DNA of 57,262 nt, filler included, from Squatina squatina (Eukaryota), in assembly GCA_031763465.1 (NCBI GenBank). It is 3 parts of 3 records of this genome, joined end to end, with 100 filler letters (N's around TTAATTAATTAA, not from the genome) between each part and the next. Parts side by side here need not be neighbours in the genome. Positions count along the whole stretch, not along the records: positions 1 to 18,545 come from JARFOE010000100.1; 2 more parts are not named here. One strand, written 5' to 3'. How positions within the stretch are numbered: position 1 is the first letter of the stretch; each line of letters starts with the position of its first letter. A model generated the notes under the pieces. That model was given only the letters and a program-made list of their open reading frames with translations, was not told where the DNA came from and ran no database searches. Below, in pieces: positions 1 through 52,314 of the stretch. The position numbers were made by a program, and so were the translations under genes.

Positions 1-366
1 TTATCTTCATGTTCAAAAACTTCCGTGGCCTCGCCCCTCCCGATCTCTGTAACCTCCTGCGGCCCTACAGCCCTCGAAGAATTCTATGTCCCTCCAGCTC
101 TTGTGCATCCCCTACTTCCTTCATCCCAACAATGGTGGCCATGCCTTCTGCCGTCTAGGCCCCAAGCTCTGGAATTCCCTCCCTAAACCTCTCCACCTCT
201 CGCTTCTACTTTAAGACGCTCTTTAAAATCTAGCTTTGTGACCAAGCATTTGGTTACCTATCCTAATATCTCCTTTTATGGCTCGGTGCCAATTTTTATC
301 TGATTATGCTACTGTGAAGCGCCTAGGGACGTTTTACGACATTAAAGGCGCTATAGAAATACAAGT
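1..366 (+). mobile_element. L2-type LINE 3' end
   Basis: Degenerate end of ORF2 followed by a tail ending ctgtgaagcgcctagggacgttttacgacattaaaggcgctatagaaatacaagt, resembling L2 and L2-dependent SINE 3' ends; the SINE at 5665 has a similar tail in reverse. Confidence 0.65.
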
Positions 367-2155
367 ACAGAGATGAGGGAAGGCCCTAGGAAGCCTTCGT
401 TCTTCATTTCCCGAGCGTCCTGCCCTAGACCAGCTACAAACCTTATTGTTTGGAAAGTGGAACTTTGAGGGTTAATTATAAACCTTCTCCTGGGTAAGTC
501 CAGCAATACTGGATGTGGAGAAAGGAAATGGTTTGGGTTTTTTAAAGTGGTTGATATCTAACAGGCATGCACTCACATGAAATGCACTGTTTATAGTAAA
601 TACAACTGAATGGCGAGGGGAGCAGTTGGCTTTAATTTCAATCAGCCAGGTGCGCGCCGCCCGAGAAGCACAGATGTTTCCATGTGAAGGCTACTTTGTA
701 GTTAATGAGATTGAGTAGAGCCGGGCAGACGGGGAAGGGGTTCAAATTTCAACCTCTTCTGGGAGACAGGTTCACTGAATAAAGGTAATGAGGTTGACTA
801 GAAGGTGACAGCTCAGCTTATTCCGTTTACTTCAGGGGTCTGGCAGGTTGCCGCTGCTCAATAGCACAGTAGGAAAGTGAACTCGAGTCCCATGGAGCCC
901 TCTGGAGGACCCGAGACGGGTATATGGGAGTGGAAGAAAGCAGGTGGGGGGTTGGGGGGGAATGTTTTGCCTCTAATGATGCCCGTCCTTGTTGATGGCT
1001 TGACCAAGAAAAACTGTTAAATTAAAAGGAANNNNNNNNNNNNNNNNNNNNNNNNNNNNNNNNNNNNNNNNNNNNNNNNNNNNNNNNNNNNNNNNNNNNN
1101 NNNNNNNNNNNNNNNNNNNNNNNNNNNNNNNAGTTTCAGTCTCAACACTAGAAGCTGATCAAAGCTCTTGACTTTATTCTCGAATTAAATATCTGCTTTT
1201 ACCTTTGAGATGTCTTGGCCATCAATTTTAATGCAGCCTCCCTTGACGTCATAAAATCGGAAGAGCAGACGGATGATGGTGCTTTTCCCTGACCCAGAGG
1301 GCCCAACCTAGAACAAATTACAAGTAACAGAATCGTTAATCCAATGGGCCGAATGGCCTCCTGTGCTGTAAACGTCTACAGTTCCACAGCATGGTTATGA
1401 GATGTGAAAACCGGTCGCTGCAGAACAAAGGTTTGAGAAAGGCCTTCAATGTCCTATTGGTTCGTACTTTTGATTTAAAATACATGTTTCAGCCTCTTCA
1501 AATGTACACAAATGGCACATTCATGCCCTATCTCGCTCACACTTGCTCCCCAACTCAAAAAAAAACTCTTGTCTCAACTCTTTAAAGGACAATAGCTCCC
1601 TCAATGGAGGAAGTAACTGGTCCAGTTGTGGCAGCATGGTGAAGACTGACTGGGAGGAGGGAAGGGAAGGGGCAATGCAGTGATAGTAGGGGTGGGGACA
1701 GAGGGCCATCACGGTGATTGCAGCATTTGGTGGCGAGGAGAGGGGCAATTTGATAATAGGTCTAGATGAGAAGGTCAACTTATAAAACGTCTGCTAGCAC
1801 GGAGGAGAATAGGCTGGGAACTTTATAACTGACTAGAAATGTGTGTTCAATTGCAGGACCCAACCTTGTCGATGAACATTTACTACAGTTCTTTTTAAAA
1901 AAAATAATTCTCTGTATGTGGCTGTCACTGGCAAGGCGGCATTTATCGCTCATTTCTAGTTGCCTGGAGAAAGTGAGCCACGACAGCCCTTGTGGTGATA
2001 GTGCTTCCCCCAACAATGGGCGTTGCCCAGAAAGCCTCAGATCATTACTCGCTGANNNNNNNNNNNNNNNNNNNNNNNNNNNNNNNNNNNNNNNNNNNNN
2101 NNNNNNNNNNNNNNNNNNNNNNNNNNNNNNNNNNNNNNNNNNNNNNNNNNNNNNN

Positions 2156-2296
2156 GCCACTCGCCTATCAAATACCACCTGCCCCACCTGTGGTCGAGTT
2201 TGCAGATCCAGTATAGGACTATTTAGTCACCTCAAAACCCACAACTACAGAGTGGTAGCAAGTCATCCTCGGCCCTGAGGGACTGCCTAAGAAGAG
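2156..2296 (+). mobile_element. RTE-clade LINE 3' fragment with C-terminal C2H2 motif
   Basis: Translates TCPTCGRVCRSSIGLFSHLKTH, followed by a short 3' UTR and an AAG-like tail; a second copy lies at 16300-16615 on the opposite strand. Confidence 0.65.
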
Positions 2297-2574
2297 GAAT
2301 TGGATTGAGACTGCCCAATCTCATTTCATGGAAGATTCTTATTGACAGAGATATTTAACCTCTCTACCAAACATATGTTTCTCTGCAGATTTTTTTAAGA
2401 ACATGCATAAAATGCATTCACTTAATACAGATAACCAGTATGTTTACAATATCATTCTCCTCCTCTGGTCTCGGGCCTTCCCTCGCCACTGCTTTTGTTC
2501 CCACTCTGGTCTGCTCCTCCTCTGGTCTCAGGCCTGCTCTCGCTGTTGCTTTTGTTCTCGCTCTGGTTCTCCAT

Positions 2575-3136
2575 TCAGGAGAACTTTCTTAGCCAGTACG
2601 TAGTAAGTCCAACAAGAGAGGGGGTGGCTCTGGACTTAGTTTTAAGGAATTAATCTGGGCAGGTGGATGGTGCATTAGTTGGGGAGCACTTTGGTGGGAG
2701 TGCTCATAATTCAATTAGATTTAGGGCAATTATGGAATTTGACAAGGATAGACCCGGGATAAAAGTTCTAAATTGGGCAAAAGCTCATTTTACTAAGCGA
2801 AGATGTGGTTTGGCTAACGTGGACTGGAATCAGCTACTTGAAGGTAAATCAGCGTCAGAACAGTGGGAGGCCTTCAAGGAGGAGATACTGAGGGTTCAGA
2901 GCAAGTATGTTCCCTTAAAGGAAAAGGGTGGGACTAACAAATCCAGAGCCCCCTGGATGTCAAAGGGCTTACAGGGGAGGATAAAGAAAAAAAGGAAAAT
3001 ATATAACAGATACCGAGGGCTCAATATTGCAGAAAACCTACAGCAATATAAAAAGTGTAGGGGTGAAATTAAAAAGGAAATTAGGAAAGCAAAGAAAGGG
3101 CATGAAAAATATTGGCATGTAAAATCAAGGAAAACC
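2575..3136 (+). mobile_element. CR1 LINE ORF2 fragment (endonuclease end and tether)
   Basis: Translation VGEHFGGSAHNSIRF...LNWAKAHF...QWEAFKEEILRVQSKYVP...PWMSK matches the CR1 SDH, W..FK and PW motifs. Confidence 0.8.
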
Positions 3137-3236
3137 NNNNNNNNNNNNNNNNNNNNNNNNNNNNNNNNNNNNNNNNNNNNNNNNNNNNNNNNNNNNNNNN
3201 NNNNNNNNNNNNNNNNNNNNNNNNNNNNNNNNNNNN

Positions 3237-3420
3237 GGGTTACAGTGAGGGAACACACGGCAGTAAGGGGGTTACAGTGAGGGAACACACGGCAGTAAGG
3301 GGGTTACAGTGAGAGAACACACGGCAGTAAGGGGGTTACACTGAGGGACATATAGCAGTGATAAAGGATTACCCGCAAGGAAGCAGATGGCAGGAGGAAA
3401 GGGTTACAGTGAAGGAGGCA
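3237..3420. repeat. 32-bp minisatellite (gggttacagtgagggaacacacggcagtaagg)
   Basis: Units recur at 3241, 3273, 3305 and 3337 and then decay; the array abuts a gap. Confidence 0.9.
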
Positions 3421-3445
3421 AACAGCAATATCAGAAGCCACTAAC

Positions 3446-3522
3446 CTGTAATAGGTTCCAAACCAGTTGAGGGGTGTGTAAAGCTGAATAATGTAAGTGC
3501 CAAACAGGACATAGTCACCAAC
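3446..3522 (-). CDS. ABCB6: ABCB6 internal exon (77 nt)
   Basis: ctag|...|gttag boundaries; encodes [26 protein letters not shown], almost identical to vertebrate ABCB6 TM6. Confidence 0.95.
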
Positions 3523-3782
3523 CTAGGCAGAAACAAGGATACGCATTCAATTACACTTTAGAGATTTTCAATAACGTGATCCACGGGACAGGGAACAGAT
3601 CGAAGGGACAGGGCCGGAGGTAGACGGGACGGGCCGTCAGTTGGAGAGAACTCATTGTAAGATCTATGGGACAAGGTGCAAAGCACACAAAATGGGGTGA
3701 AATACACAGAAGTTGCATCTACTGAAAATGGAAACTTTGGTTTGAATTTCAGCACTGGCCCAGAGTGTGAGAAGCCACTTAC

Positions 3783-3908
3783 TTTAAACTTTTTCTCTGT
3801 GACAAAGTAGGCACAGAGCAGTGATCCAGCAAGAAGCCCGAGCCCAATGATCACGTTCTGTGATTGGTTTAGAAGCGCGAGACTGGCACTCGTTTTCCAT
3901 TCTGCCAC
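3783..3908 (-). CDS. ABCB6: ABCB6 internal exon (126 nt)
   Basis: tttag|...|gtaagt boundaries; encodes [42 protein letters not shown]; phase 0 to 0, in frame with its neighbours. Confidence 0.95.
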
Positions 3909-4913
3909 CTAAACAGAAGTAATATTGAGAGGCGTGAGCAACAGATCCTGCTCCAGGAACCAGTGTGAATGAACCAAGGATATCAATCCACCTAATGCTC
4001 AACTTCACAAGAATGGTCTGGCACTTGGTGAGTGTTTCGTACATCCTTGTCTGCCAAAAGCTGCTTTTATACTGGTTGGCATGAGGCTTGGATTAACACT
4101 GTGCATACCGAGACCCCAAACTCACTTCATGTAGGACCCTTACAACCGCCGGAGAGAGAGGAGACATTTCTCTGTGGGAACTGCATTCTCCTCGCCATAT
4201 CCCACGGACAACTGCACCATCACAAATTCCTCAGCTGCCAATGGCACTTCAACGCTGCACCTCATACAGTGCAACAGACGGACAACACCGCAAAAAGGGA
4301 CAGAATGCAACAAAAAAGGAGCTGAACTTGGCATTTTACTGTGACAGGAAAAGGGCATTTTTTTTTCATTTGTGTCACGTTCTTTCAGACACAGTACAGA
4401 CGGGGTCAAAAATCAGTTTAACCCCACTGATTTATCCCATCGCCTTCTCAAGTTAGGAAAGGTCATGAGGGCGCCAGGAAGCTAATATACACGAGGTTAG
4501 GGGTTTCTGTGCGACCCCTGGGTTAGCTGCGAATGTCCTAGCTATGGTGGCAAATAAAGACACACTGCGGCTCAATGCAAGTAAAGGGCTCACCCGCGAG
4601 AGTGCTCCGTGATGCTGAGCCCGAGAAAAATATCTGGAGTAAAACTCCAACAAGTTACATTNNNNNNNNNNNNNNNNNNNNNNNNNNNNNNNNNNNNNNN
4701 NNNNNNNNNNNNNNNNNNNNNNNNNNNNNNNNNNNNNNNNNNNNNNNNNNNNNNNNNNNNNNNNNNNNNNNNNNNNNNNNNNNNNNNNNNNNNNNNNNNN
4801 NNNNNNNNNNNNNNNNNNNNNNNNNNNNNNNNNNNNNNNNNNNNNNNNNNNNNNNNNNNNNNNNNNNNNNNNNNNNNNNNNNNNNNNNNNNNNNNNNNNN
4901 NNNNNNNNNNNNN

Positions 4914-4992
4914 GGAGCTGGAGGAGGCGCAGACGCAGACCCATGTGCCGGGAGCCAGCGGAGGCGCAGACCCATATGCCGGGAGCCGGTGG
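4914..4992. repeat. About 31-bp GC-rich tandem repeat at a gap edge
   Basis: ggaggcgcagacccatrtgccgggagcc units; agacccat occurs at 4937 and 4968. Confidence 0.7.
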
Positions 4993-5081
4993 CACGGCTG
5001 TGGAGTTAAACCAATGTAGAAGGAGCTCAGCCATTCCGCAGATTTGTCAAGATTCAGAAGTCCTTCTCCGGACGCTCTTAC

Positions 5082-5147
5082 CTGATACTTCAGTATGGCA
5101 TCATTGAAACGGTTCACCTCATAACCCTCAGCATTGTAATACTTCAC
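5082..5147 (-). CDS. ABCB6: ABCB6 internal exon (66 nt)
   Basis: ttcag|...|gtaag boundaries; encodes VKYYNAEGYEVNRFNDAILKYQ. Confidence 0.95.
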
Positions 5148-5664
5148 CTGAAGGGAAAGAAAAGTGAGGTCAGTTTTGTGACGCCAGCAATACACAAATG
5201 AGAAATACGACACTTGGGTTCTCACCAGCAAACAAGTGGATCCATATGCACTTTGACTGAAGCAGTCAGATGGATCTTCAATTGGTGCACTGCCAACAGA
5301 CAGGCTTTGCATACACAATAATTTATTGTACTCCAAAATTTCATTGTGTAGGTCTCTAGGTGGAGAGCGAGGAAAAGAAAAACAGGCCTTATCCCACTAT
5401 TGTACTGCGTCCAAGTACTTCAAACAGTGAACTATTCTTGGAGTACAGCAACTGTTATGTAGGTAATGAGTTGACTGACCAGTTAATCTGATTTGGTGAT
5501 GTTGGTTCAGGGAGGACTGTTGGCCAGGATATTCGAGGGATGATTCAACGCTCTTAGGCAAAGCTACACCGGACAGAAGCACAAGTCATGAAAATTGAAC
5601 CTACATCTTTGTCCTGCATTCCCTTCAAATGCTGCTCCCCACTGGGAGCGCAGGACCACTCTTG

Positions 5665-6105
5665 ACAAAAAGACTTGTATTTCGATAGCGCCTTTTACCA
5701 CCTCAGGATGACCCAAAGCATTTTACAGCCAATGAAGCACATCTGAAGTATAGTTATTGTTGTAATGTAGGAAACACAGCAACCAATTAGCAAACAGCAA
5801 GATGATAATGTTGAGTTAATCTGTTTTGGCGATGCTGGTTGAGGGATAAATATTGGCTAGGACACCAGGAAGAACTCCCCTGCTCTTCTTCAAAATAGTG
5901 CCTTGGGATCTTTTATGCCCACTTGATTGGCTGACAGGGCATCGCTGTAACATCTCACCCGAAAGATGGCACCTCCGACAGTGCAGGACTCCCTCAGCTC
6001 TGCACTGGGTGTGTCAACCTGAATTTTGTACTCAAGTCGCTGGAGTGGAACTTGAACCCACCCACCTTTTGACTCATAGGCTACCCACTGAGGCACAGCT
6101 AACAC
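5665..6105 (-). mobile_element. Near full-length Deu-domain SINE (SacSINE1-like)
   Basis: The minus strand shows a tRNA-like head with B box (ggttcaagttc), a central conserved body and an L2-like tail; partial copies lie at about 10940-11180, 25610-25840, 36225-36345 and 41125-41260. Confidence 0.7.
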
Positions 6106-7526
6106 CCTATTCTTCTTCAGTTAGTGCCAAGGGATCTTCAACATCCACCTGAACCAACAGATCAGGCAGAAAGGATCTCAAAGAAGCATCACGTCTGAAA
6201 GGATAATAAGCAGACAAACGGATGTGCAGAACGCCTTGGGAGTTTATTCAACTTCTGTCCCTCAGAGCTTCGACAGGAAGTGAATTGATCCTTTTCATTC
6301 ACTTTGTACTGTACATGTGCAGGAGTTGACAGGGAGCCACTTAGAATACCAGGCAGATGCGAATAATTCTGTTTTACCTGATCAGTACCATTTTGTATTC
6401 AAATATGCTTTGAAGTCCATTTGATCCCAGTAGCAAAGCAGAAAGTTTCTGGGGAAAGAATCAGGAATAAGTGGGAAATGTTAAAACCTTTGATGGCCTT
6501 CCAGAATGCTGCGAGGCACAGATTGTAGTTTGAGAGCTAAAAGCATGTGTGCATCTTTTACGTCTCATCATGTTCTGCGGCTTACGGAGCAGAAAGTGCA
6601 ATCCTGTGTTGTTAAACATGTCGCTAATTCACTTCCTTCCAGCACCAAAGCAGTAATTAGATCAAAGGTAATTTAGGAGAGCCTTGATTCACTAAATCCA
6701 GCGAAAGCCACAAGGGAAGGAAGAATTTGTCTCACCCTTTACATTTGGATATTTTCATTAAAACATCATGGGCTAGAAATTGCATAGCGCCCGGTTTGAG
6801 GCGATAACTTTTCAGGGAGCACTAAAGTATCGCCAGGTGCAAAAGACTTTTTTCCTCCCGGGAACTTCCGCTTTAGCGCTCCAAGAGGGAAGAGTAGCAC
6901 TAAATGAAGTGCTATCACTTCCCTCAAAGCGCTAGTGACTGAGAGAGGCGGTGGCGGCACAGCGCTGAACAATGTTCCGGGCAGCTAATGTCTTTGGAAG
7001 CTCCTTCCCTCACTAAAAGGGAAGGGCCAATGATGGGTTGACACATCCTGTGGGGCCGTGGNNNNNNNNNNNNNNNNNNNNNNNNNNNNNNNNNNNNNNN
7101 NNNNNNNNNNNNNNNNNNNNNNNNNNNNNNNNNNNNNNNNNNNNNNNNNNNNNNNNNNNNNTATCATTTCCATTTCCTAAAGGGACAGGTGCCCTCACAG
7201 TCTCAGAGGAGACTAACAATCTGGTCCCAATTACTGCCGTGTTATGGGCTGTGGATCAGCGCCCATTAGGAACTGGGCTTTTTCAGTAAGTGTCTGATTC
7301 TGTCCCCATAGTTGTGTTGCAGTAAACCTATGATGCACTAAGGCAGAGGCCGTGTTAAAATGTTGGAGATTTTTTAGCTGCTACAGTTGGGCTTGGCCGG
7401 GAATGGCGTCGTGAAGCATTTAGCCACTCTCAGCCCATGTTTTAAAGAGCGTGATGCTTCTTATCGTGAGCACTTAGACGCAAATTTAGCACAAAGAATA
7501 ATTTACTTGTTGGTCAGGATACTTAC

Positions 7527-7648
7527 TTAAGTACAGCACCATGCAAACAAAGACAATGAGTCCGAACCAGGCATTAAAGTTGGAGGTGAAGTAAACAATG
7601 GCGATGATGATATCTGCGATCGTCGGGAAGATGCTGAAAACAATGTAG
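7527..7648 (-). CDS. ABCB6: ABCB6 internal exon (122 nt)
   Basis: ttccag|...|gtaagt boundaries; encodes [40 protein letters not shown], matching ABCB6 TM3-4. The ORF track does not show this frame. Confidence 0.93.
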
Positions 7649-8249
7649 CTGGAAAATAAAGTTTATTTATCACTGAATGAAGCAAAATTACAATCTTTAA
7701 GCTTTTGAGTGCAAATTTTCTCACTGCAATTAAAAGTTTCAGGGGCCCTGTTACTGAACAGATGCGACTTTTAAAGTCGCAGATACAACCATTTCTTAGG
7801 CGATCAGAGTATTGCCCCAGTCACCAGGCAATGTGAGGGTCAGGACCCTCTGTGTGACAGTCTCTGAAACAGCTACATTACTGACAGCACAGGAGAGCCT
7901 TACGGCAGTGAGTCAGAAGGGGATGCGTGTAGAGTGACAATATTTTGTTCATTACAGCAAAGTCTGCTTTCACAGAAGTCCAGCTCCACCACAGAAACAC
8001 TGCACACAAAGGGGCCAGATTGTGAGTACCCAAAACCCCCTTGGGATCGTTCAATTAGCATGTCTGGATCAATCTCGCTCTCTTTCCGCCTCTCCCACAC
8101 ATTGACTATTTGCTTACGTCCTCTTCTAAACCACCAAACCCCCACCCCCATTCTTTTCTTTCCTCTGATCTCTGGCCACAGAGTTTCCGAGCTCTCTCCC
8201 GAAGCACGTTGCCTTTGACTCACGCGGATCAGGATTAGAAATTTTTTTT

Positions 8250-8559
8250 CTTATTCATTCATGTAGGGGCTGTTGGCAAGGCCAGCATTTATTGCCCATC
8301 CCTAATTGCCCTTGAGAAGCCACCTTCCTAAACCGCTGCAGTCCGTGCGGTGAAGGTGCTCCCACAGTGCTGCTAGAGAGGGAGTTCCAGGAGTTTGACC
8401 CAGCGACAATGAAAGAACAGCAATATATTTCCAAGTCAGGATGGTGTGTGACTTGGAGGTGGTAGTGTCCCCATGCGCCTGCTGCCCTTGTCCTTCTAGG
8501 TGGTAGAGGTCGCGGGTTTGGGAGGTGCTGTTGAAGAAGCCTTGGCAAGTTGCTGCAGT
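8250..8559 (-). mobile_element. CR1-like LINE 3' end
   Basis: The motif ggccagcatttattgcccatccctaattgcccttgagaag recurs near 34365; the minus translation contains FIVAGSNSWNSL, a LINE C-terminal WNSL motif. Confidence 0.6.
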
Positions 8560-8937
8560 NNNNNNNNNNNNNNNNNNNNNNNNNNNNNNNNNNNNNNNNN
8601 NNNNNNNNNNNNNNNNNNNNNNNNNNNNNNNNNNNNNNNNNNNNNNNNNNNNNNNNNNNTATTTTGTAATGAAAAATAGGCGAGAACACAAACACAGGAA
8701 TAAGCAGGCTGGCCTGTAATAAAGCAAAGTAAAATAAAATAAAATAAAATACAGCTAAAAGAAGCTAGTGCATTGGGTTTTAAATTGCATTAAGCTCCAA
8801 CTGGTAAGTTGCAGTTACAAAGAATGAAGCTGCACTGAGCTTGTTTGCTCTGCATTATTCCACAGGACAGTCAGGTTCCTGCAAGTAGGGGTGGTCAGCA
8901 TTGATCTTGCTGTCAAGGAGGGGAAAAAAAATCAGGC

Positions 8938-9009
8938 TGCGTCAGTTTTCTTTGGGGCTGCTGTTTGGTATAAATAGGACTCTGCAGCCCAGGTTCCGCA
9001 CACAGCCAT
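8938..9009 (+). promoter_or_regulatory. NEFL: NEFL-like core promoter: CRE-like TGCGTCA (8938-8944), TATAAATA (8969-8976), 5' UTR start ccgcacacagccat
   Basis: The motifs are seen directly, immediately upstream of an NEFL-like head. The TATAAATAGG...ccgcacacagccat arrangement resembles the mammalian NEFL promoter as I recall it (not verified). Confidence 0.7.
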
Positions 9010-9019
9010 NNNNNNNNNN

Positions 9020-9477
9020 TACGGGGACAGTCCTGTGCCCAGGAGCTACGGAACTGTCCAGCATTTCAGGAGCAACTATGGAGGCAGCCTCAAGCCTGCC
9101 TACAGCGCCTACTCTTCGCCCACCTTCTCGGCCAGGAAAGCCCACAGCGTCTCGTCCGCCTTGCTGTCCTCGCTGGACACCTTCGACCTGAGCCAAGCCA
9201 GCGCGGTGAGCAGCGAGTTCAAGGCGGTGCGGACCCAGGAGAAAGCCCAGCTCCAGGACCTCAACGACCGCTTCGCCAAGTACATCAACAACACCATCCT
9301 CAGCCTCATGCGCAAGAACAAGGAGCTGCTGGCCGAGCTCAAGCAGGCGGAGAAGGAGGAGACCGGCCGCGTCGAGGCCATCTTCCAGAAGGCCAGGAAC
9401 GACCTGAAGGCGCGGCTCGAGGAGCAGCAGAAGGAGCTCAATTGCCTCAAGGCGGATAAAGAAAAGTACAAGAAAAG
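9020..9477 (+). CDS. Intermediate filament exon 1 (5' truncated by gap): NEFL-like head and coil 1A start, followed by a divergent coil 1A/L1/1B
   Basis: Open frame YGDSP...FDLSQASAVSSEFKAVRTQEKAQLQDLNDRFA is NEFL-like and continues as KYINNTILSLMRKNKELLAELKQ...YKKR; phase-2 donor AAAAG|gtgggg; strong GC3 bias. Confidence 0.85.
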
Positions 9478-9574
9478 GTGGGGCCTGGGGAGAAGGCGAA
9501 GGAGCTGGAGGAAGAGAGGAGAGAGATTGGGTAGAGGTTTCTGACATTAACAACGCGCTGGCAATAGTGGTTTC

Positions 9575-9700
9575 TAACCCTAACTTCTGACCCCGAATCC
9601 CAACTCTGACCCCGAATCCCAACCCTAACCTCTGACCCCGAATCCCAACCCTAACCTCTGACCCCTAATCCCCAACACGTAACCTCTGACTGCAAATCCT
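9575..9700. repeat. 26-bp minisatellite containing CCCTAA (aaccctaacctctgaccccgaatccc)
   Basis: Units start at 9621 and 9647, with degenerate flanking copies to about 9800. Confidence 0.85.
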
Positions 9701-10654
9701 GGCCCCCTGATTGCTATCCCAAACCTCTAACCCGTGATTGCTACCCGAAACCTCTGACAGCTATTCCCAGCCCCTAAGCTCTGACCCATAATCACAACTC
9801 CTCATCTCAGCCCCAGGACATCGCTGCAGGAATTCCGCAAATCCAAGGATGAGGGGCGACTTGATAGAGGTTTATAAGANNNNNNNNNNNNNNNNNNNNN
9901 NNNNNNNNNNNNNNNNNNNNNNNNNNNNNNNNNNNNNNNNNNNNNNNNNNNNNNNNNNNNNNNNNNNNNNNNNNNNNNNTAGTTTCCTTGATTTAGATTC
10001 AGGATGCTCGTCTCAGAATCAACTACATCACTCTCCATCTTAATAAAGAATTCTATCATATTATGGCCCCAGTGGGCCTCGCACAACAAGACTGTAAAGC
10101 AACTTGGGATGTCCTGAGGTTATGAAAGATGCTATTTAAATGCAATCTTTCTGCTTTTTTTCTGAAAATTGGCAGTTGGAGACATTCAGGAAATTGATAT
10201 TTTGTACAGGATTGCCCTGCTGTATTCCTAAATGGAGGCTGCCCCATTATCCCTTTTCATTAAATCACAACAGGGGACTTCTGGAAAAAACGTCTGTCCT
10301 CTGACTGCCTCTCTACAATTATTTTAAAGCTTTCGACAAGCATAACAAGTAACTGCTGAGAGACACATCTCTCCTTGTACCATCTATGATCCAGGTCCAA
10401 ACACTCTTTTAATGTTTAATATGGAATGCTTTTAGGTAACATAAGTATAACAATTATTATACTGTCTTGTACATTAGCACATTTAGACAAGATGTCAGTG
10501 TTCACCATTTTAACGTATATATAAGCAAAAACTGCTGTAAAAACTCAGCAGGTCNNNNNNNNNNNNNNNNNNNNNNNNNNNNNNNNNNNNNNNNNNNNNN
10601 NNNNNNNNNNNNNNNNNNNNNNNNNNNNNNNNNNNNNNNNNNNNNNNNNNNNNN

Positions 10655-10930
10655 CAAGCCGTCATCAATACTCTGCCGTGATCTATTTAAATGTGCCGGT
10701 TCTCCCACAATCCTCTGCTTTGTTCTATTTAAATGTGCCGGTTCTCCCACAATCCTCTGCCGTGGTCTATTTAAATGTGCCGGTTCTCCCACAATACTCT
10801 GCCGTGGTCTATTTAAATGTGCCGGTTCTCCCACAATCCTCTGCAATGGTCTATTTAAATGTACCAGTTCTCCCACAATCCTCTGCCTCACTCTGTTTCA
10901 ATGTGCCGGTGCTCCCGCGATGCTCTGCCA
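10655..10930. repeat. 42-bp minisatellite (ctatttaaatgtgccggttctcccacaatcctctgccgtggt), about 6 copies
   Basis: Period 42 (10683, 10725, 10767...); explains the 14-aa repeat ORFs on both strands. Confidence 0.95.
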
Positions 10931-11341
10931 ATTTGTTGAGGTAAAACTGTTGGCCAGGACACTGAGGGAGCTATGAAATATTCTTTGAATAGTTTCATGG
11001 GATCTTTAACATCCAAGTGAGCCAAAGCAGATAGAGAGGGCCTTAGTTTAACATCTCCAAAGGAAACGCCTCCGATAATGCTGCAGACCAGCAGCACTGC
11101 TCTGGAGTGTTAGCCTAGATTGATCTGAATTCTTCGATCTATAACTTTCTGATCAGAAGCTACTAAGCCAACCTGACACATATCTATGCTGCTTTCTTTT
11201 CGTCAGCCATGTTCAGTTAACAAAACAGTTTAGTGAAACTGGTGTCACAGTTTTGCCACAATATTTGGTTGGATGTAATAAAAGCAAAGTTCTAATATAT
11301 GTAACACATCTGTAATTGGTGTATTTGGTGTCTTCCGAAAG

Positions 11342-11535
11342 GATGAATTAATGAAGAACTCACTGCTTGAAAAGGACAAAGACATAAACAGACAGAGAGA
11401 ATGCAGTAAAGTACTGGAAAAGAGGATTGTGCGGCACACGAATGAATATCAGGAGCTATTAAATGTAAAGACACAACTTGAGCAAGAGATTGCTGCTTAC
11501 AAAAACTTACTGGGTCAAGTGGAAAAGAAAGCAAG
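11342..11535 (+). CDS. Divergent intermediate filament coil-2B-end exon (194 nt, phase 0 to 2)
   Basis: gaaag|GATGAA...GCAAG|gttagt; encodes DELMKNSLLEKDKDINRQRECSKVLEKRIVRHTNEYQELLNVKTQLEQEIAAYKNLLGQVEKKAR, a variant of the IF helix-termination motif [29 protein letters not shown]. Confidence 0.8.
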
Positions 11536-11714
11536 GTTAGTATTGTCTTAAGCAGATCTAGGAAATGTCATCACGTGGACTTTATTTGTGGCTTTTTAAA
11601 TGGTTGTTTTCTTATGAAATTGTGGAAGTAGACTCTGTGGTGTGAAACACATATACAAGGAACAGTGCAGTGACTGTTGAACAGCCTGTAATGTGATGGG
11701 ACCAACTGACAGGT

Positions 11715-12233
11715 GAGTGTGACGACCTTTGAGCTTAAGGCAACACGCAACCAAGTGTGGCACTTAGGAGCCCCAGTAAATCTAAAGTCAATGGGGATCA
11801 GGGGAAAACCCTTCAGCTGCTGGAGGCATGCACAAAGGTTGTGGTCGTTGGAGGCCAATCGTCTCAGTCCCAGAACATTGCTGCAAGAGATCCTCAGGGC
11901 AGCGCCCTAGGTCCTTCTACCTTCAGCTGCTTCATCAATGACCTTCGCTCCTCATAAGGTCAGAAGTGGGGATGTTTGCTGATGATTGCACAGTATTCAG
12001 CTCCATTTGCAATTCCACAAATAATGAAGCAGCCCATGCCTACAATCTGCCATTACCTGAACACCATCTAGGCTTGGGCTGATAAGTGGTAAGTAACATT
12101 CGTGCCAGGCAATGACTATCTCCAACAACAGAAAGTCTAACCACCTCCCCATGACATTACCATCAACATCTTGGAGGTCACCATTGACCAGAAACTCAAC
12201 TGGAGCAGCCAAATAATAGCTGAGGCAACTGGA
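11715..12233 (+). mobile_element. Degenerate CR1-like RT fragment
   Basis: PQGSALGPSTFSCFINDL followed by mFADDct, the RT motifs of CR1/L2 elements, with frameshifts. Confidence 0.8.
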
Positions 12234-14194
12234 NNNNNNNNNNNNNNNNNNNNNNNNNNNNNNNNNNNNNNNNNNNNNNNNNNNNNNNNNNNNNNNNNNN
12301 NNNNNNNNNNNNNNNNNNNNNNNNNNNNNNNNNAAGTTTGGCGCTCGATTGAATCGAACATGTGAAGGTTGAGCGTAAATGTCAGACTTTCGTTAATTAA
12401 TTTTATGGTCTTGGTCAATGATGCCACTTAGAAGATATTTCCTTCTACCTTGACTGACGGCGACGAACTACGATCACATAATTTTTGCCACGTACGTATC
12501 ACCATACCATAATTTAAGTATTATTACATATTTGAAATGACTCCGTGCAGTGATATTTAAATCCATTTTATTGATTTGATGGGTTGGTTTTATGTGTTTT
12601 CCTCATTTGTGATTGGTAGCATTTTCTACCCATTGGATAACAAATTAGCAGATGGTTATTTAAACCAATCAGAAAGGTGTATATAACTTTTTATAATTCT
12701 GCATATGTGTGAAGCATGCAATTGATATGCTATATGCAAGTATTTCTTTTAAATTATGTGAGTATTTAGCTTTAAACATTACATTCAAGGAGAAAATTAT
12801 TGTGGGGAGGGAGTAATTTGTATTAAATGTGGTCTTCAATCAAGTGCAGAAGTGGTATGTTGTCATTTTAACGTCCTCAAAGATGAGGGTCTGATTTGTA
12901 CTTGTGTGAATGCAGTAAATTTTATAGTACTTTACAATGTCCAACTCCACGATAATCTTTCATTCATTACTTAACACTGATCTCTGTTGTGTTGTTCTGC
13001 AAGGTTGCATATATAGTCAAGTTACTAGGTTTCAAGAAATAATTCAATGAAGGACAAGATTTGAGTGATTTTGACCCACATTGATATAACCACAGCACGT
13101 CATGGGAAGGGAAGGGGCATTTCTTGAGATTCAAAACCGTAGCCTCAAATCCTTTGTGTTTGGACTTTACAGTTATAATGGTCATAAGAACAAAATCATT
13201 AATTTGATAGGCTACTGTAAGCCAAGTTCTGAAGTAGCTGAGTCAGAGGATGGCATTTTAACAATCAATAAATAACTATATTTGTAAGCCATCGGAGCTC
13301 CTCTGGGTTATTAGTGATAATCCACATTTTAAAGCAACAGACTAAAAATAATTTCAAATCCAAAGCACAATTTTTGTTGCATCAAGTAAAAGAAAGCTTT
13401 CTGTTAATAAAATGACAATGTAAATCCATGTGAACTAGTCCTTTTTCTTGATGTCATCAATGGATAACCTATCCATGAGACAATAACCTGGATATTAAAG
13501 GAAAAGAATTAAGATTAATGTCTTGTATCCTGTCTGTAGTTTTAAAAACATTAGCAAATTATGTCTTGTTTCCTGTACAATGCCTATTCTGGGCGGGAAA
13601 CACAGCACTATTACATTAAGGAGTGCACCTCGCAACATACAGGGAGGTCCAATCCCCATATTGACATGACCAGCTGACGGCTAAATGCAGCCTTTCACTC
13701 TGGAACCTCGTTGAAAATCACCCCATTTCTAAACTTACTTGAAATTAATTTACACTACTGCCTGCTTCTCCAAAGATTTAAATTTCACCCATCGTACAGA
13801 CAGGTCTGCCCTTGCGTGGACAGAATTGAAGTTCAGCAGATATAGGTAGCAAAAGGTTTAAGAATTGCTAGTGTTAAAAATTAAATCAATGCAGTGTCAG
13901 ATCCAAATGGTGTTATTTTCCATTCCTTTTTGTCACATCGCTCCATTTAATATGACAAAACCTCTTCTGACAAAGTCAATACGTTTTGGGTCCAAACTGA
14001 GCAGGGAGAACTTTAATGGAATGGTTTCTTACAATTCCCAACAGCGGAGTGCAATGTATGATATAGTTTCAGATTATTGACACTGATGCACGGACTACTG
14101 ACAGAGAAAATGTCAGGAAAAATTCATGTTGAGAGTTACACTCCACCAAATAATTTATATAACGTGTCGGTTTAATTTTCTTTGGAGTCTTCAT

Positions 14195-14307
14195 GTTGTT
14201 TCTGCTTTTTCTCTAGGTAAGTTGTGACGCTGGAGCTCTCTCGTCCTGGAGGAGTAGAATTTGAGACGGGTCGGTGCTCTTGCTTTGTACAGCCAAGTAT
14301 CGTAAGA
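14195..14307 (+). other. Candidate recursive splice site (polypyrimidine-AG|GTAAGT) with an 85-nt stop-containing exon at 14217-14301
   Basis: ttgtttctgctttttctctag|gtaagt; downstream donor c|gtaaga at 14302; stops in all three frames. Confidence 0.35.
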
Positions 14308-15020
14308 GTGATCAACATGTTCAAATTGACATTTGAAAATTTGTAAATTAATGTTTTTTAATTCCAAATATACGTTTGTTGATTGTTACATTGTGCACTA
14401 TTATAATGGCAGGTACATTGTCACAGACTAAGTCCAGACTAAATGCAGTTCAGTTGCATGGAGGGTAGCACCGTCTGTGCACCCTCAAATGTCAAAGCTG
14501 TAACTTGCTCAAATTAGGGATCGGATTTTGGATCATGCAGAGTTATCCACAGTGTTCAGTTATGAGTAATATCTGGCATTTAAAAAATATTTAAAAATAA
14601 TTATCTGAAGGAACTAATCGGAATCTGAATGATTTGCAGGGAGATTTTTTTTTCTTTAACTGTACAGATGGTTTGGGTTTACACAAGGTGAAGGGAAGAA
14701 ACACTAACTTTAATATACATGGAAAGGTACTATGTACTGAATAGCAGATAGTCCTTCAGAGTATTAAAATGGTTATCTTCCTGTTTTGTCCCAGTTGTGA
14801 CTAGCTTTTTGCTGTGTATTTTGCATTGTACTAACTGTAAACCCTTAGCCTGTATGACATGTGAAGCAAAATGACAGTACATCTAGTACAATTGCTGGGG
14901 TGAAAGCAAAGTGAAACTGAACTATTCTGGTTACATTTAATAAATGTACTATGAATTACACATCTTGAGTATAGTAAATGTATTTAAAACTTCAAAATTA
15001 ACTATTTTATTGCTTTCTAG

Positions 15021-15055
15021 GGACTACTCTACTCAGCCATCAATAACTGATAAAG
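15021..15055 (+). CDS. Candidate 35-nt micro-exon (phase 2 to 1; DYSTQPSITDK), possibly the IF tail
   Basis: ttttattgctttctag|...AAAG|gtgtgt; its phase fits the 11342-11535 exon. Confidence 0.35.
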
Positions 15056-15699
15056 GTGTGTATAACTTTAAAGTCAGTTTGATATTAAACTAATGTTCTG
15101 AATTGTATTAACATTTTATTTTTCTTTGTCCAACACATTCATCAGATATCTCTGAGTTACCCCAAATACCAGTTAAATTGTGGGGGGTGGGGGTGACTTG
15201 CAAGGGATGATGTCACATCAAGATAATTTGATGGTGATGACGTCCAGAACAAGGGGTGTTGCCCACATGAACACTTCCTTGCTATGTTGCGTATGATCCC
15301 AAGTGTAAGTTCAGCTTTTACCCCTGCAACAGAAGCCTTTCTTTGTCCTCTTTGCTCAAATTCTTCCAATCTAAACTCAATTTTTTCAAGTAAGACATGT
15401 CTGGAAAGTCTATGATATTTGCTTCTTTTAACTTTCTTCTTCCTTCTATACGCTGTCCTACGTTCTCTTCGTCCTCACTGTGTTGCAATCCAAACATAGC
15501 GCATTTTTTCTTGCTCTAACTTATTCTCAGGATTTAATTTAAAATGTTTACCACCTTCAGTCTTTTCTTCATCATACAGTCTACAAGGTTTTGAAATGCA
15601 TGTTTGGCTCCACCTAGTTACTTTGTTTTCATCATCCATTGCCTTACTCCATATTGTCTTCCAGAATGACATACAAGGCGTTCTCCATCCACAACGTCA

Positions 15700-16300
15700 T
15701 AATGCAGTTAACCTCTCCTGGCCCTGAAAGAAATCTGCCTCAATAGTGAATCCTTTCCCGTTACTGAAGCCACCCTGTGGATAAGTATTTTGCATACGGC
15801 AATGGCATCACTGTCATCACCAAATTCCATCTTGCTCTCTTGCCCTATTCCTTTGGTATCATTTCCTCCTTCAAGTATCTTAGCCTCCTCCATCTTTCCC
15901 AACTGTCTTTCAAAGTATTCATCATTTACAAGCCTCCCAAGTTTCGTAGTAATTTCCTCACTGAGATTTTCTCTCTGAACCTTGGCTTCTCATCCTTTGC
16001 AATTCCAACCTACATCTAAGTTCCCTGCTACTCTACTGTAGCTTCTCTGCCTTCCTCTTTGCACTGGAAGCTCAACCTTCACTTAAACTTCCTACCTATA
16101 TCCTTCCGACCCACTTGATCTCATCTTTGCAAATGGCCTCTCCAGCTCCTATGTCTCAAGCAATAAAGCTATCGCTAAGCACTTCTTTATTGTTCTTACC
16201 ACTTACATTTTCTTGCTACCTTCCAACCCCATCACGTTGGTCTTCACCCCTGGAAAAAACTTTGTGCAGCTCTCTCATCAGCTCAAGTTCAAACTTCTTC
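15700..16300 (-). mobile_element. Possible degenerate Ty3/Gypsy gag remnant
   Basis: Fragmented minus-strand frames (EKEKKFELELMRE, KEVLSDSFIA, CKEEGREA) weakly resemble fish Gypsy gag; many stops. Confidence 0.3.
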
Positions 16301-16615
16301 TCCTTCTCTTCGGCAGTCCCTCGAGGTCGAGGATGACTTGCTTCCGCTCCGGAGTTGTGGGTTCTGAGGTGACTAAGTAGTCCTATACTGGATCCACAAA
16401 CCATACCATAGGTAGGGCAGGTGGTATTTGATTGGCCGAGAGGATGGGATGCACGGGTTTCCGTACGCTCCTTCCGCTGCCTGTGCTTGGCCTCCAAGTG
16501 TTCCCGCTGGAGAACCTCGAAGTGGTTGGCGCCTTCACGGATGCTTCTCCTCCAGTTCGGGTGGTCTTGGGCCAGAGATTCCCATGAGTCGGTGGGGATG
16601 TTACATTTTTTCAGG
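16300..16615 (-). mobile_element. RTE-clade LINE 3' fragment
   Basis: EAKHRQRKER...NTTCPTYGMVCGSSIGLLSHLRTH...SHPRP; same family as 2156-2296. Confidence 0.7.
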
Positions 16616-17579
16616 NNNNNNNNNNNNNNNNNNNNNNNNNNNNNNNNNNNNNNNNNNNNNNNNNNNNNNNNNNNNNNNNNNNNNNNNNNNNNNNNNNNNN
16701 NNNNNNNNNNNNNNNCATCTCGGTCCTAAACGACTTCCCCCTTATCCTTAAACTGTGCCCCCTGGTTCTGGACTTCCCCAACATCGGGAACATTTATCAC
16801 CATTGCGAGTTTTCACTAATTATGCCTGTTCGTAGGCCTTCAAGGAGGCTCTGAAAATTAAGCAGGAGTTTTGGGGTGCAAGGACGCTAATAGAAACATT
16901 TTAAAAGGTTTGGAATGTTTTTTTTCAAACTGAGAAATTGACTACTGTACCCCAATATAACTAGAAAATAGTTTTGTATATATTTTAAAAGTTATTTTCA
17001 GTCATTTCAAATTGAGCTACTCGCAAGTGGTGGAGTGACACTGTGGTTAAAGATGCTTATTTTTTGTGATAAACCCATTTACAGCTGTATTAATCAAACT
17101 TCACCAAGTTACCACTCTTAAATATATCACAGAATTTTTTTTAAAGCAAATGTTTTTTTAAAAAAACGCCTGTTTGTACTGGTTCATGGCAGATTTCACG
17201 TTCAGTGATATGCAAATGAGCTTGAGCAGAAACTCAAGAAAAAATTTTTTTCCAAATGGGTGGGATTTGCGCCCGGATCACTGATTGCACACAAAGCAGG
17301 CGCTCTGCCCCAAGGTCCCAGTATTGAGCTGGAAAGCCCAGACCCAAACAGGAAGACTGGGCCCAATGTGCTGATTGTGTGTCAGAGCCCAGGGCCGCCG
17401 ACACCTCCCCTGCTTTAGTTCTGTAAAGCTGCCGTCAAGGTTCGCACGTGGGCGATGGAGACTTGGCCGAGATAACCGGGCAAAAGGCAGACCATGAACC
17501 AACACTCCGGCACGGGTAAATGAAGGGCGGAAAATCATTCTGGAAGTTTACTTTGAATTCCAATATCTGAGTTGCATCA

Positions 17580-17985
17580 AAGGGTGATCTAATCGAGGTG
17601 TTTAAGATGATTAAAGGATGTGATCGAGTAGATAAGAGGGAAATTATTTCTTTGGGTGGGGGGAGTCCAGAACAAGGGGGCATGACCTTAAAATTAGAGC
17701 CAGGCCGTTCAGGGGTGATGTCAGGAAGCACTTCTTCACACAAAGGGGACTGGGAATCTGGAACTCTCCCCCACCACCACCTCCCCCCCCCAAAAAAAAC
17801 CTGTTGAAACCAGGGTGGGGTCAACTGAAAATTTCAAAACTGAAATTGCTAAGATTTTTGTTGGGTGAGGATATTAAGGGTTGTGGAACCAAGGCGGGTA
17901 GATGGGAGTTAAGATCAGCCACGATCTCAATGAATGGTGGAACAGACTGGAGGGGCCGAACGGCCTCCTCCTGTTCTCTGTGCTG
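17580..17985 (+). mobile_element. CR1 LINE 3' end
   Basis: GDLIEVFKMIKG.DRVD motif followed by a 3' UTR ending ggggccgaacggcctcctcctgttc. Confidence 0.85.
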
Positions 17986-18545
17986 ACAGTCGATGCGAAC
18001 AAGATTTTTGTTAAACCTCGGGTTCAAAAGAAAAACGCCCAGAAATCAAATGGACGGAGCTGTGAAATAAATAGTTTTATTGACGCTCTGCAAAGTGCTG
18101 AATACCATGGACTCTCTTTGATCCCCAGAAGGGTTCCAGTTCAGAGCTGTAACCTGCGCACTTTGAGCAACAGCACAAACTAACAGAAAAGGCAATCTCC
18201 TGTGTACTAGTCCCAGTGAACTCATGCAGAATCGGATCGGAACAAGAATGCGTACCACCAATATACAGATTTCATAGAAACAAGATTATTGGTAACAAAC
18301 CGAATATAAACATGGCTTTCTTTTACAATAGATACAAAGAACAGATAAAAGCAGTGAAGGTAAATACATCGGGAATAATTACAAATAAAAATCCCAGACA
18401 TTTTATACACCTGTACAATTAAGAAATGTAATACAGTCATCATGTACAACCAGCAGAGGTTTGTGGTCTACACTGTGAACGGAGTTTAAACAGAGAGTGG
18501 CGTTTGACAGCCGGTCACGCATTGCATTCAATCCCACCCTGTATC

Positions 18546-18645
18546 NNNNNNNNNNNNNNNNNNNNNNNNNNNNNNNNNNNNNNNNNNNNTTAATTAATTA
18601 ANNNNNNNNNNNNNNNNNNNNNNNNNNNNNNNNNNNNNNNNNNNN
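18546..18645. other. Artificial scaffold linker N44-TTAATTAATTAA-N44
   Basis: A 12-mer with stops in all six frames (18590-18601) is centred in an exactly 100-nt spacer; an identical structure lies at 39741-39840. Confidence 0.95.
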
Positions 18646-19555: not shown

Positions 19556-21173
19556 NNNNNNNNNNNNNNNNNNNNNNNNNNNNNNNNNNNNNNNNNNNNN
19601 NNNNNNNNNNNNNNNNNNNNNNNNNNNNNNNNNNNNNNNNNNNNNNNNNNNNNNNNNNNNNNNNNNNNNNNNNNNNNNNNNNNNNNNNNNNNNNNNNNNN
19701 NNNNNNNNNNNNNNNNNNNNNNNNNNNNNNNNNNNNNNNNNNNNNNNNNNNNNNNNNNNNNNNNNNNNNNNNNNNNNNNNNNNNNNNNNNNNNNNNNNNN
19801 NNNNNNNNNNNNNNNNNNNNNNNNNNNNNNNNNNNNNNNNNNNNNNNNNNNNNNNNNNNNNNNNNNNNNNNNNNNNNNNNNNNNNNNNNNNNNNNNNNNN
19901 NNNNNNNNNNNNNNNNNNNNNNNNNNNNNNNNNNNNNNNNNNNNNNNNNNNNNNNNNNNNNNNNNNNNNNNNNNNNNNNNNNNNNNNNNNNNNNNNNNNN
20001 NNNNNNNNNNNNNNNNNNNNNNNNNNNNNNNNNNNNNNNNNNNNNNNNNNNNNNNNNNNNNNNNNNNNNNNNNNNNNNNNNNNNNNNNNNNNNNNNNNNN
20101 NNNNNNNNNNNNNNNNNNNNNNNNNNNNNNNNNNNNNNNNNNNNNNNNNNNNNNNNNNNNNNNNNNNNNNNNNNNNNNNNNNNNNNNNNNNNNNNNNNNN
20201 NNNNNNNNNNNNNNNNNNNNNNNNNNNNNNNNNNNNNNNNNNNNNNNNNNNNNNNNNNNNNNNNNNNNNNNNNNNNNNNNNNNNNNNNNNNNNNNNNNNN
20301 NNNNNNNNNNNNNNNNNNNNNNNNNNNNNNNNNNNNNNNNNNNNNNNNNNNNNNNNNNNNNNNNNNNNNNNNNNNNNNNNNNNNNNNNNNNNNNNNNNNN
20401 NNNNNNNNNNNNNNNNNNNNNNNNNNNNNNNNNNNNNNNNNNNNNNNNNNNNNNNNNNNNNNNNNNNNNNNNNNNNNNNNNNNNNNNNNNNNNNNNNNNN
20501 NNNNNNNNNNNNNNNNNNNNNNNNNNNNNNNNNNNNNNNNNNNNNNNNNNNNGCAGAGAGGAGGAAGAATGTGTTCCATAGTGTACTTGCAGTGTAGGGA
20601 CCATAGAAGCTTATAGCACAGAAGGGGGCAATTCAGCCCCTCTTCGTTGGAGAAATCCACAACTAATCCCGCTGCCCAACTCTCTTCCTATTTACCTGTA
20701 TCATCCTCTGCTTCAAATGTTTATCTACTCTTCCTCTCTTGCTCCTCCATCGCACCTTTTAAGGGAACGCTCCAAGTACTGGCTACAGTAGTATCGTCAG
20801 TATAGAGAGAGGCAGCAGAGAGATTCTCAGGCTACAAGTGAGAGCAGGATCACCAATCTGACTGGGGGCTATTGTTGTATTCTGTGAGAACAGCTCCAGA
20901 GAAGTTGCCGACATATAGAAGCAGTATCTGGACCTTTGAAAGATTTGGGCTCAATACAGAGTTGGGAATTGCTCACGGAGAAAGAGTTTGGGACAGAAAA
21001 GAGACTGAAAGATAGAAAATCTATTGTCTACATTTTCTGATTGGTGTCCCTCTAGCATTAAGTTAAGAAGAAAAGCTCTACCTGCGCCCCTCCCCCTTCA
21101 CAGACTGTCCAAGTAGGTCTGAGTCGGTACGTGGAGAGAGGGATTACATTGCATTTTGGAAATGTCCACTCAC

Positions 21174-21360
21174 CATCGTTGAAGTCTCTGCCAAGCTCGT
21201 GATTGGGGCAGCGTTTCACCACTTCAGTCACGTGTTCAGCCTTTTTGTAGACTGGCATTGCACGCACCACGCTGCCTGGAGGTGGTGGCGAGGTCAGTTT
21301 TACCTGGATTGGACATGTCTTTGCAATCTGACAGTAAAGTTTCTTCAGCAGTGGAGAATA
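21174..21360 (-). CDS. TP73: TP73 DNA-binding-domain exon (exon 5 equivalent, 187 nt)
   Basis: ttatag|TATTCT...GATG|gtgagt; encodes [72 protein letters not shown] and ELGRDFN are p73 states; p63 has YSTEL, PPPQG and ELSREFN. Confidence 0.95.
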
Positions 21361-21399
21361 CTATAAAATAAAACACAGACCATTTCAAAAGCAAAGTAC

Positions 21400-21655
21400 C
21401 TTGAAAATGATCCATCGGTTTCTGTAAACATTGGGCTCGCCCAACTTCTTCTGTTATCTTCATTCTTTTCCGCTCGCTTTTTCCTCAGCGGAGCTGGGAC
21501 ATAGGTTGCAGGTTTGCTTTTACTTGGCAGGAATTGGTTGTAGGGCACAACAGGCTTATATTCAGAAGTGGAGGCCCTGCGAAGCGACATGTCATCTTTG
21601 GGTCCGTCCATCATCTTGCTGTTTGGATATTCTGACTCGATATCACTCCCGCCGC
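21400..21655 (-). CDS. LMO7: LMO7 internal exon (256 nt)
   Basis: gtttag|GCGGC...TCAAG|gtactt; encodes [26 protein letters not shown]...[59 protein letters not shown] favours LMO7 over LIMCH1. Confidence 0.85.
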
Positions 21656-22063
21656 CTAAACCGAAACAGAGTTGAAGGAAAACATCATTTCAATATTGCT
21701 TCTTTGCAAATTAATTCACGTAGTTCTTNNNNNNNNNNNNNNNNNNNNNNNNNNNNNNNNNNNNNNNNNNNNNNNNNNNNNNNNNNNNNNNNNNNNNNNN
21801 NNNNNNNNNNNNNNNNNNNNNNNNNNNNAAATATTTCCACTGGAGCAGAGAAGGCCAAGAGGAAATTTAATGGAGGCTTATACAAATTGTAAGGGTTTTC
21901 ATAGAGTGAATAGGAAAATAATGGTGTTTAAAACTGTTGCTAACAGAATGTTATAATGAGAGCTTCAGAGAAATTTCTTGACACAGTGGGTTGTTGGAGC
22001 ATTGTATGCTTTGGCACGCAGTGGGTTTATTTAGAGATCATTGCATCTTTTAAGGGAAAATTA

Positions 22064-30570: not shown

Positions 30571-30715
30571 ACATAGTGTCAAACGTGGAGCTTGGCTGCG
30601 AGTAGGGAGACGGCGTTGGGACATTCGAGGCGTGCTCCGAGTTGTAAGGGCTGGCGGAGGATGCACGGTTGGTGATACTCTGATCCATGCTGCTGTTTAG
30701 CAAATTAAACTGGGA
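30571..30715 (-). CDS. TP73: TP73 exon 4 equivalent (3' part lost in gap)
   Basis: ccctctctag|TCCCAGTTT; encodes [48 protein letters not shown], matching the p73 proline-rich region. Confidence 0.93.
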
Positions 30716-51098: not shown

Positions 51099-51398
51099 TC
51101 ATGCGGGCTTCGGCCTAACACCTTGGTCAAGGTCAAACCACTGAGGTGGACCCCCCATGCTGGTTTGGCCTAACACCTCGACTAGCTCGGGATCTGTTCA
51201 GACTACCATTCTGCCTCAACATCTGTCCGTTTCGTTCCGGGGCCATAGATTGCTCTCATCTGTCACGGGTTGTATGTCTACTCTATCTATCTCAATCGCA
51301 TGTAATATCTGATTGTACTTAAAACTGTAGCTCTTCAATAAAACACCTAAGACCATTTGGGTAATCTGTGTGTGACCTGTGATCCAAATTTTACAACA
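51099..51398 (+). mobile_element. Possible LTR 3' portion (solo LTR)
   Basis: AATAAA at 51337, terminal ...ttacaaca, internal repeat ggcctaacacct; the 5' end is lost in a gap. Confidence 0.4.
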
Positions 51399-52314
51399 CA
51401 GTACAAAAATTAAAAAATAATTAACTGTGTAAGATTAACATGAGGCACTTGCCACTGGGCATTTGAGAAAATTAACCAAACTACACATTTTCATTGGACA
51501 AAATATTAATTCACATTTCAATCTGCTCCATCCTTCACACTCTGAACTCCTGTTAATAGTGTTTATTTCCTAGATGAAGGGAGCAAAAATAATGGAGCCC
51601 CTACAACTCACATTAATTTTTCCAAGGTTCAGTGGGCCTTTTGTTGATTCTTCTATATTTGTTTTCTTGCCCCCCAAATTGTTCCACTTTTTTTCCAGAC
51701 AGCATGGATTTGTGTCATTAAAAATGTATTCTTCTAGGGAGAAAATATATGGAGAAGTATTCTTTAGCTTCCTTTGTGTTCATTTTTTTAAATTATGTTT
51801 ATGAGATCTTCGCTTCAGTCGAGTTATTGATTGGTATTTATTTTTTTCATTTTGCTTTGACTATTTTTACTATGAATTTTTTCATTAAATTTAGCATTTG
51901 AAGTATTAGCCAATAGAGTGTAAAGTTCATAACACAAGTCCCCAACACCACCATACTTAGCTCTGAACATGATCTATTACAATGCTCAGCCTTTGTTTCA
52001 TACGTTGCGCCAGAGGATCATTTATGGATGGTTTGCACCTTTGTACATCAGAAACTGATAAAGTGGAACATGCGTGATGCAAATTTACATTTTTATTGCT
52101 CATAACACTTCTTGAATTACAAATTATGCGGCATTTCCAGTCCAGGTACTACTCCTTGAAGGACAATATTATGCAATTATCAGACGTGAGCCAGATATGT
52201 TTCCTACTTGGTTTNNNNNNNNNNNNNNNNNNNNNNNNNNNNNNNNNNNNNNNNNNNNNNNNNNNNNNNNNNNNNNNNNNNNNNNNNNNNNNNNNNNNNN
52301 NNNNNNNNNNNNNN

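Follow-up and report, generated by a model that had tools for sequence, protein, structure and literature searches.

The filament exon of the window, by which we mean the whole stretch of 57,262 nucleotides of Squatina squatina DNA analysed here, reads as a mosaic of two genes: the head of NEFL runs in frame into the rod of another IF gene, and the switch falls within a motif, DLNDRFA, that both parents share. We consider the join as a whole to be very probably an artefact, and a genuine hybrid gene is accordingly improbable. As judged by its sequence, the exon is not NEFL, since its rod and intron fail to fit, and it is not an intact copy of the rod gene either (hereafter the host gene), since its head fails. 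The features on which the argument turns are as follows.

1197 to 7650, minus strand: five internal ABCB6 exons (7650-7525, from 5147, from 3908, from 3522, 1307-1197), placed by a tblastn map
8660 to 9009, plus strand: small contig with promoter-like motifs (gap map, motifs), with a 100-N gap, 8560-8659, at its left edge
8938 to 8944, plus strand: putative CRE-like motif TGCGTCA, two copies in the window over both strands
8969 to 8977, plus strand: putative TATA box TATAAATAG, one copy in the window
9010 to 9019, no strand: placeholder gap of 10 N (gap map), concealing the NEFL start, about 16 codons, and perhaps also UTR
9020 to 9256, plus strand: NEFL head, equivalent to shark NEFL residues 17-95, apparently a foreign piece; 70-89% identical to 10 named elasmobranch NEFLs
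9257 to 9277, plus strand: shared DLNDRFA motif of 21 nt, the junction, the longest identical run of both parents
9278 to 9477, plus strand: 3' part of host-gene exon 1; 76-97% identical to 17 proteins of 11 species
11342 to 11535, plus strand: host-gene exon encoding the end of coil 2 (equivalent of type III exon 6), matching P0001 at 64 of 65 residues, with AG and GT at its ends
15021 to 15055, plus strand: short host-gene tail exon DYSTQPSITDK (equivalent of exon 7), phase-compatible with the preceding exon

Two parents of one reading frame

A single open frame extends from 9020 to 9541. Translated from 9020, it matches the Pfam models Filament_head (residues 7-72) and Filament (residues 73-151), and because the Filament match spans these residues the part beyond the switch is predicted to be still IF coil 1A-1B. 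The two parts have different closest relatives. Residues 1-79 are 89% identical to NEFL of the sawshark Pristiophorus japonicus, against 5% for the host protein of that species, whereas residues 87-153 are 97% identical to the P. japonicus host protein and only 22% to its NEFL, matches that go far beyond chance (search E values of 1e-35 for the head and 4e-29 for the rod). A first-pass annotation of this DNA had described an NEFL-like head on a non-NEFL rod, and both descriptions hold. Searched alone, the head retrieved 20 proteins among 154 candidates, with 10 elasmobranch NEFLs on top, and its identity to the 17 named host-gene proteins is 4-9%. With the rod alone (residues 87-153), 179 candidates yielded 17 proteins at 76-97% identity, which represent 11 species of sharks and rays; past LNDRFA, it is 19-27% identical to 20 NEFL-type proteins.

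No protein combines the two halves among those compared. Identity above 50% in both halves was found in none of 38 proteins, a set made up of 36 of the 37 matches of the head and rod searches (one unnamed match was excluded) together with P0038 and P0039. A scan of 1.84 billion representatives yielded 127 matches, none of them close to both halves, although such a scan shows one protein per 50% cluster and a hybrid could sit behind a representative; its top three matches were two rod-only proteins and one NEFL-type protein at 48%. The same fusion was thus absent from an independent protein set (38 compared, 127 scan matches at 50% clusters). The suggestion, also made in the first-pass annotation, of a genuine chimera driven by a neuronal promoter finds no positive support, with 0 of 38 proteins carrying both halves.

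The switch, originally placed in the LNDR motif at about 9255-9280, can be narrowed to DLNDRFA at 9257-9277. In each of 100 pairings of 10 host proteins with 10 NEFLs, the longest stretch of identity is this motif, and the overall identity of the parents is 29% over 304 aligned residues. Extrapolating from the proteins, the common DNA may cover 9255-9279 (25 nt), provided that the codons on either side of the motif also have bases in common. The GC content at third codon positions is 0.95-1.0 across the junction, and no sequence change marks the position of the switch. Under the codon use of the exon, the chance of two genes sharing all 7 codons is about 4%. At its other end the exon closes with a phase-2 GT donor (9478-9479) that splits the R codon following YKK, in agreement with the earlier reading of a phase-2 donor after YKKR, presumably at the position of type III intron 1. 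A related protein, P0038, continues past this donor at 9478 into a similar intron start, and for this reason we assign intron 1, on present sequence, to the host gene.

The TATA and CRE-like motifs reported earlier are indeed present, with TGCGTCA at 8938 and TATAAATAG at 8969. The contig that holds them (8660-9009) probably represents the NEFL promoter and the start of the 5' UTR, since scaffolding links it with the NEFL head and it presumably resembles the core promoter of mammalian NEFL. Between promoter and head the sequence is interrupted by a gap of 10 N, and scaffolding alone ties them together. This gap must conceal at least about 46 nt, because elasmobranch NEFLs carry 14-16 residues ahead of YGD (16 in 8 of 10, 14 in 2 of 10). 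A literature search returned no paper on NEFL promoter motifs, and the 5' extension of P0038 did not match the promoter contig, which is a weak test.

The host locus and the state of the assembly

The host gene encodes a protein of about 353 aa with an acidic tail and is conserved in 11 shark and ray species (P0001-P0017). All its proteins start with a head of their own, 35-37 residues long, which is followed by LNDRFAKYIN, and isoforms omit blocks of 32 and 53 residues. Automatic annotation has named it vimentin-like, desmin-like, GFAP-like or peripherin-like, or left it uncharacterized. The first-pass annotation had spoken of a new rod; that the rod is non-NEFL stands, but its novelty does not, given that it comes from this conserved gene and that two later exons follow downstream in order. 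Missing from the window are the 36-residue host head ending in KERFK (best tblastn match, E 1.1) and any credible match to host exons 2-5 or the last tail exons. Besides the head piece, no other NEFL sequence was found in the window.

Beyond elasmobranchs, a word-limited search with 67 residues produced no match to the host gene, which is weak evidence of absence, and an Atlas search with the host protein returned general Filament clusters only. The open-access literature, to which our search was confined, yielded no paper on the gene. Zebrafish ngs is a candidate orthologue. We regard the host gene as a lead toward a putative divergent type III-like filament with a short rod.

Intron 1 contains a degenerate tandem array at 9569-9800 (plus strand), with 8 copies of a unit of about 26-27 nt at 63-100% identity and an abundance of CCCTAA-like words. 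A second, short array with a unit of about 42 nt is seen at 10655-10930. On the minus strand, a broken coding-like stretch rich in lysine and glutamate occupies 15160-16000. It has a weak match to HMG_box_2 (E 0.009), under the cut-off, and no match in the PDB; it may be the relic of a pseudogene or of a mobile element.

Linkage indicates which of the two halves is native. The ABCB6 exons, whose best match is ABCB6 of Heptranchias perlo (93%), and the IF gene are oriented head to head. The window lacks ABCB6 residues 1-376, and the exon for the NBD had no match in the PDB at E 1e-6. Host gene and ABCB6 occur on a contig of equal size in every one of the five species represented in both sets, taking the best 120 of 315 ABCB6 matches; contig sizes are those per 90% cluster and indicate linkage at the level of chromosomes, not adjacency. 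The sizes of the shared contigs are 101,158,274 in Heptranchias, 76,236,291 in Rhinoraja, 321,486,706 in Narcine, 108,378,507 in Stegostoma and 99,305,088 in Rhincodon. Host gene and NEFL, on the other hand, are on contigs of different size in 6 of 6 species, and ABCB6 and NEFL are on a common contig in 0 of 4 species among the ABCB6 matches listed. Because the host gene is linked to ABCB6 in all five species and lies apart from NEFL in all six, the NEFL sequence appears to be the foreign piece in a host locus. Residence of the two halves in separate genes of related genomes had been named in advance as evidence against a fusion, and in each of the 6 species compared we find them in intact genes on separate contigs. 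The NEFL island measures about 620 bases and extends from a 100-N gap at its left edge as far as the shared motif at its right edge.

The assembly itself is fragmented. The gap map counts 39 N gaps in the window, 6432 bases in total, and the window contigs (n = 38) have an N50 of 1830 and a median of 1006. The exon has a GC content of 56-67%, compared with about 44% in most window contigs. Two of the gaps, 18546-18645 and 39741-39840, consist of 44 N, TTAATTAATTAA and 44 N. In PMC3019230, TTAATTAATTAA is the core of a six-frame-stop linker for the concatenation of scaffolds. Since these two gaps carry the spacer, the window probably comprises three units (1-18545, 18646-39740 and 39841-57262), with the filament exon in the first. 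We had considered the proximity of TP73 to ABCB6 as proof of mis-scaffolding and rejected it, as the spacers split the window and only joins within a unit count. The closest named proteins to the genes of the window are those of P. japonicus and H. perlo.

One join within a unit does count, though in another unit of the window than the filament exon:

21172 to 21656, minus strand: DUF4757 exon and TP73 exon 39 nt apart (Pfam, PDB), with the donor at 21399 and the acceptor at 21361

Both exons lie inside the gap-free contig 20553-21728, the DUF4757 exon with the donor being the upstream one and the TP73 exon with the acceptor following it. The DUF4757 match has a Pfam E value of 2e-12 and is of LMO7/LIMCH1 type according to an Atlas lead; the TP73 exon has p73 as its best PDB match, and what we take to be the preceding TP73-like exon is located at about 30571-30715 (minus strand). 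Unrelated exons on the same strand cannot plausibly sit 39 bases apart, and on this reading of the sequence the join at 21361-21399 is probably a second assembly chimera. It follows from this spacing that seamless false joins probably exist elsewhere in the assembly. Among 300 of the 306 stop-to-stop frames of at least 55 aa that were scanned with Pfam, only Filament, Filament_head, P53 and DUF4757 matched strongly, in a scan that missed the ABCB6 exons and hence cannot count exons.

Origin of the join

Most probably, the NEFL head was joined to the host rod at DLNDRFA by an error of the assembler. Both GC-rich first exons would have to spell DLNDRFA with the same 21-25 bases, an exact DNA overlap that we infer from the proteins and assume. 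In a thinly covered short-read assembly, a path could enter on NEFL, cross at the shared word and leave on the host gene. The resulting chimeric contig would then have been scaffolded into the locus of the rod gene, displacing the promoter and 36-residue head that belong there. False overlaps are described as arising from short k-mers (PMC3861042), and coverage is likely thin in GC-rich exons. The first-pass annotation had rated an assembler chimera at least as likely as a real gene; the mosaic at a shared word, the N50 of 1830 and the second, probably false join argue in the same direction. A counterpoint is that a real event guided by microhomology would also break at the motif and stay in frame.

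An error could alternatively have arisen in the library, by PCR template switching at the shared motif, with the chimera retained because GC-rich exons are thinly covered. Such switching predicts the same junction and does not require a perfect overlap, since one or two mismatches are tolerated; this would ease the problem posed by the low chance of a complete codon match, and the high GC content of the exon relative to most contigs suits it as well. We nevertheless hold it to be unlikely: a rare molecule would have to outvote both true paths, and the join at 21361-21399 suggests a general fault of the assembly.

Slightly less probable still, in our estimate, is a real fusion, in which a microhomology of 21-25 bases in the coil 1A motif would have placed the NEFL promoter and head onto an unlinked, 29%-identical type III-like gene and given rise to a neuron-expressed hybrid. 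Were it fixed in the lineage, through microhomology-guided repair or ectopic conversion, the product would be a short-rod filament expressed in neurons. The frame is kept without a stop, the donor is intact and the later exons are compatible; the break is at the sole homologous word, as homology-guided repair would leave it, and the left breakpoint could lie within the 8560-8659 gap. Against this, none of the 11 species that carry the host gene shows the fusion, the two best matches, Pristiophorus and Heptranchias, among them, and the parents are just 29% identical and on different contigs. Efficient ectopic recombination in yeast and rodents is stated to require about 200 bp, and the overlap here is about one-tenth of that length, although conversion at a very low rate is reported with as little as 26 bp (PMC3924818). 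Replicative microhomologies, for their part, are given as mostly shorter than 10 bp (PMC9851044). Moreover, the junction is unmarked by sequence change and the same assembly contains another implausible join, and we consider fixation in the lineage highly improbable. A rearrangement private to the one sequenced animal, such as a heterozygous or somatic translocation, has in our judgment the same very small probability. It would account for the absence from other species, yet a rare event would have to be sampled and preferred over two normal alleles, and it explains nothing beyond what the artefact does. That no chimera exists and that this is a single divergent IF gene with an NEFL-looking head has practically no probability left, for although the Pfam Filament match and the vimentin alignment both cross the junction, 17 of 17 named rod orthologues bear a different short head, the head here is 89% NEFL, and the half-by-half identities refute the idea, no protein among the 38 having both halves.

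If the hybrid were true, it would carry an NEFL head on a rod shortened by 31 residues, with halves still near-identical to their parents, and it would amount to a swap of promoter and head between IF types on different chromosomes; new genes could then arise by such swapping among distant IF types. As the artefact that we favor, it would illustrate how chimeras that are in frame and splice-compatible can form at conserved family motifs of fragmented assemblies and pass every check based on sequence only, and gene models from the present assembly would require read support. The lasting lead would be the host gene, with its shortened rod, its presence in 11 sharks and rays and its four automatic names.

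Comparison with known filament systems

The exon resembles elasmobranch NEFL (type IV), for instance P0018 of P. japonicus, over frame residues 1-86, with 89% identity before the motif and an identical motif. After the motif NEFL continues as NFIEKVHELEQQNKVLEAEL, whereas the rod here is 22% identical to it; the NEFL sequence to the right of the motif is FIEKVHELEQQNK. The exon also has an intron within coil 1B (donor 9478), against the type IV pattern, and the NEFL exon layout is one that we take to be without any intron in coil 1B. Intron positions are described as differing between type IV and types I-III (PMC2075511), and donor 9478 is, to judge from the sequence, of the types I-III kind.

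With the elasmobranch IF gene of about 353 aa (P0001-P0017), the locus shares the rod at 97%, the later exon at 64 of 65 residues, the tail exon, the donor of intron 1 and the linkage to ABCB6. It differs in that the 36-residue head of this gene, its exons 2-5 and its last tail exons are lacking from the window.

Among solved structures, vimentin is the best relative of the host protein (E 3e-20). In the alignment the rod spans 280 residues in the host and 311 in vimentin; relative to vimentin, the host rod has lost 7 residues, a heptad, in coil 1B and further residues in coil 2, has gained one residue in coil 1A and ends in a degenerate motif. With 280 aligned residues, the host protein thus lacks the complete type III rod, which is about 310 residues long and conserved at its ends. 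The three donors in the window, like the skipped blocks of 32 and 53 aa, can be aligned to vimentin segments, given the vimentin intron positions that we assume, and these blocks presumably fit vimentin exons 3 and 4, on exon sizes that we likewise take as given.

In its probable mode of origin, the closest likeness is with chimeras produced by false overlap at a shared k-mer (PMC3861042), which likewise show a sharp switch between paralogues at the longest word common to them, in assemblies of low contiguity.
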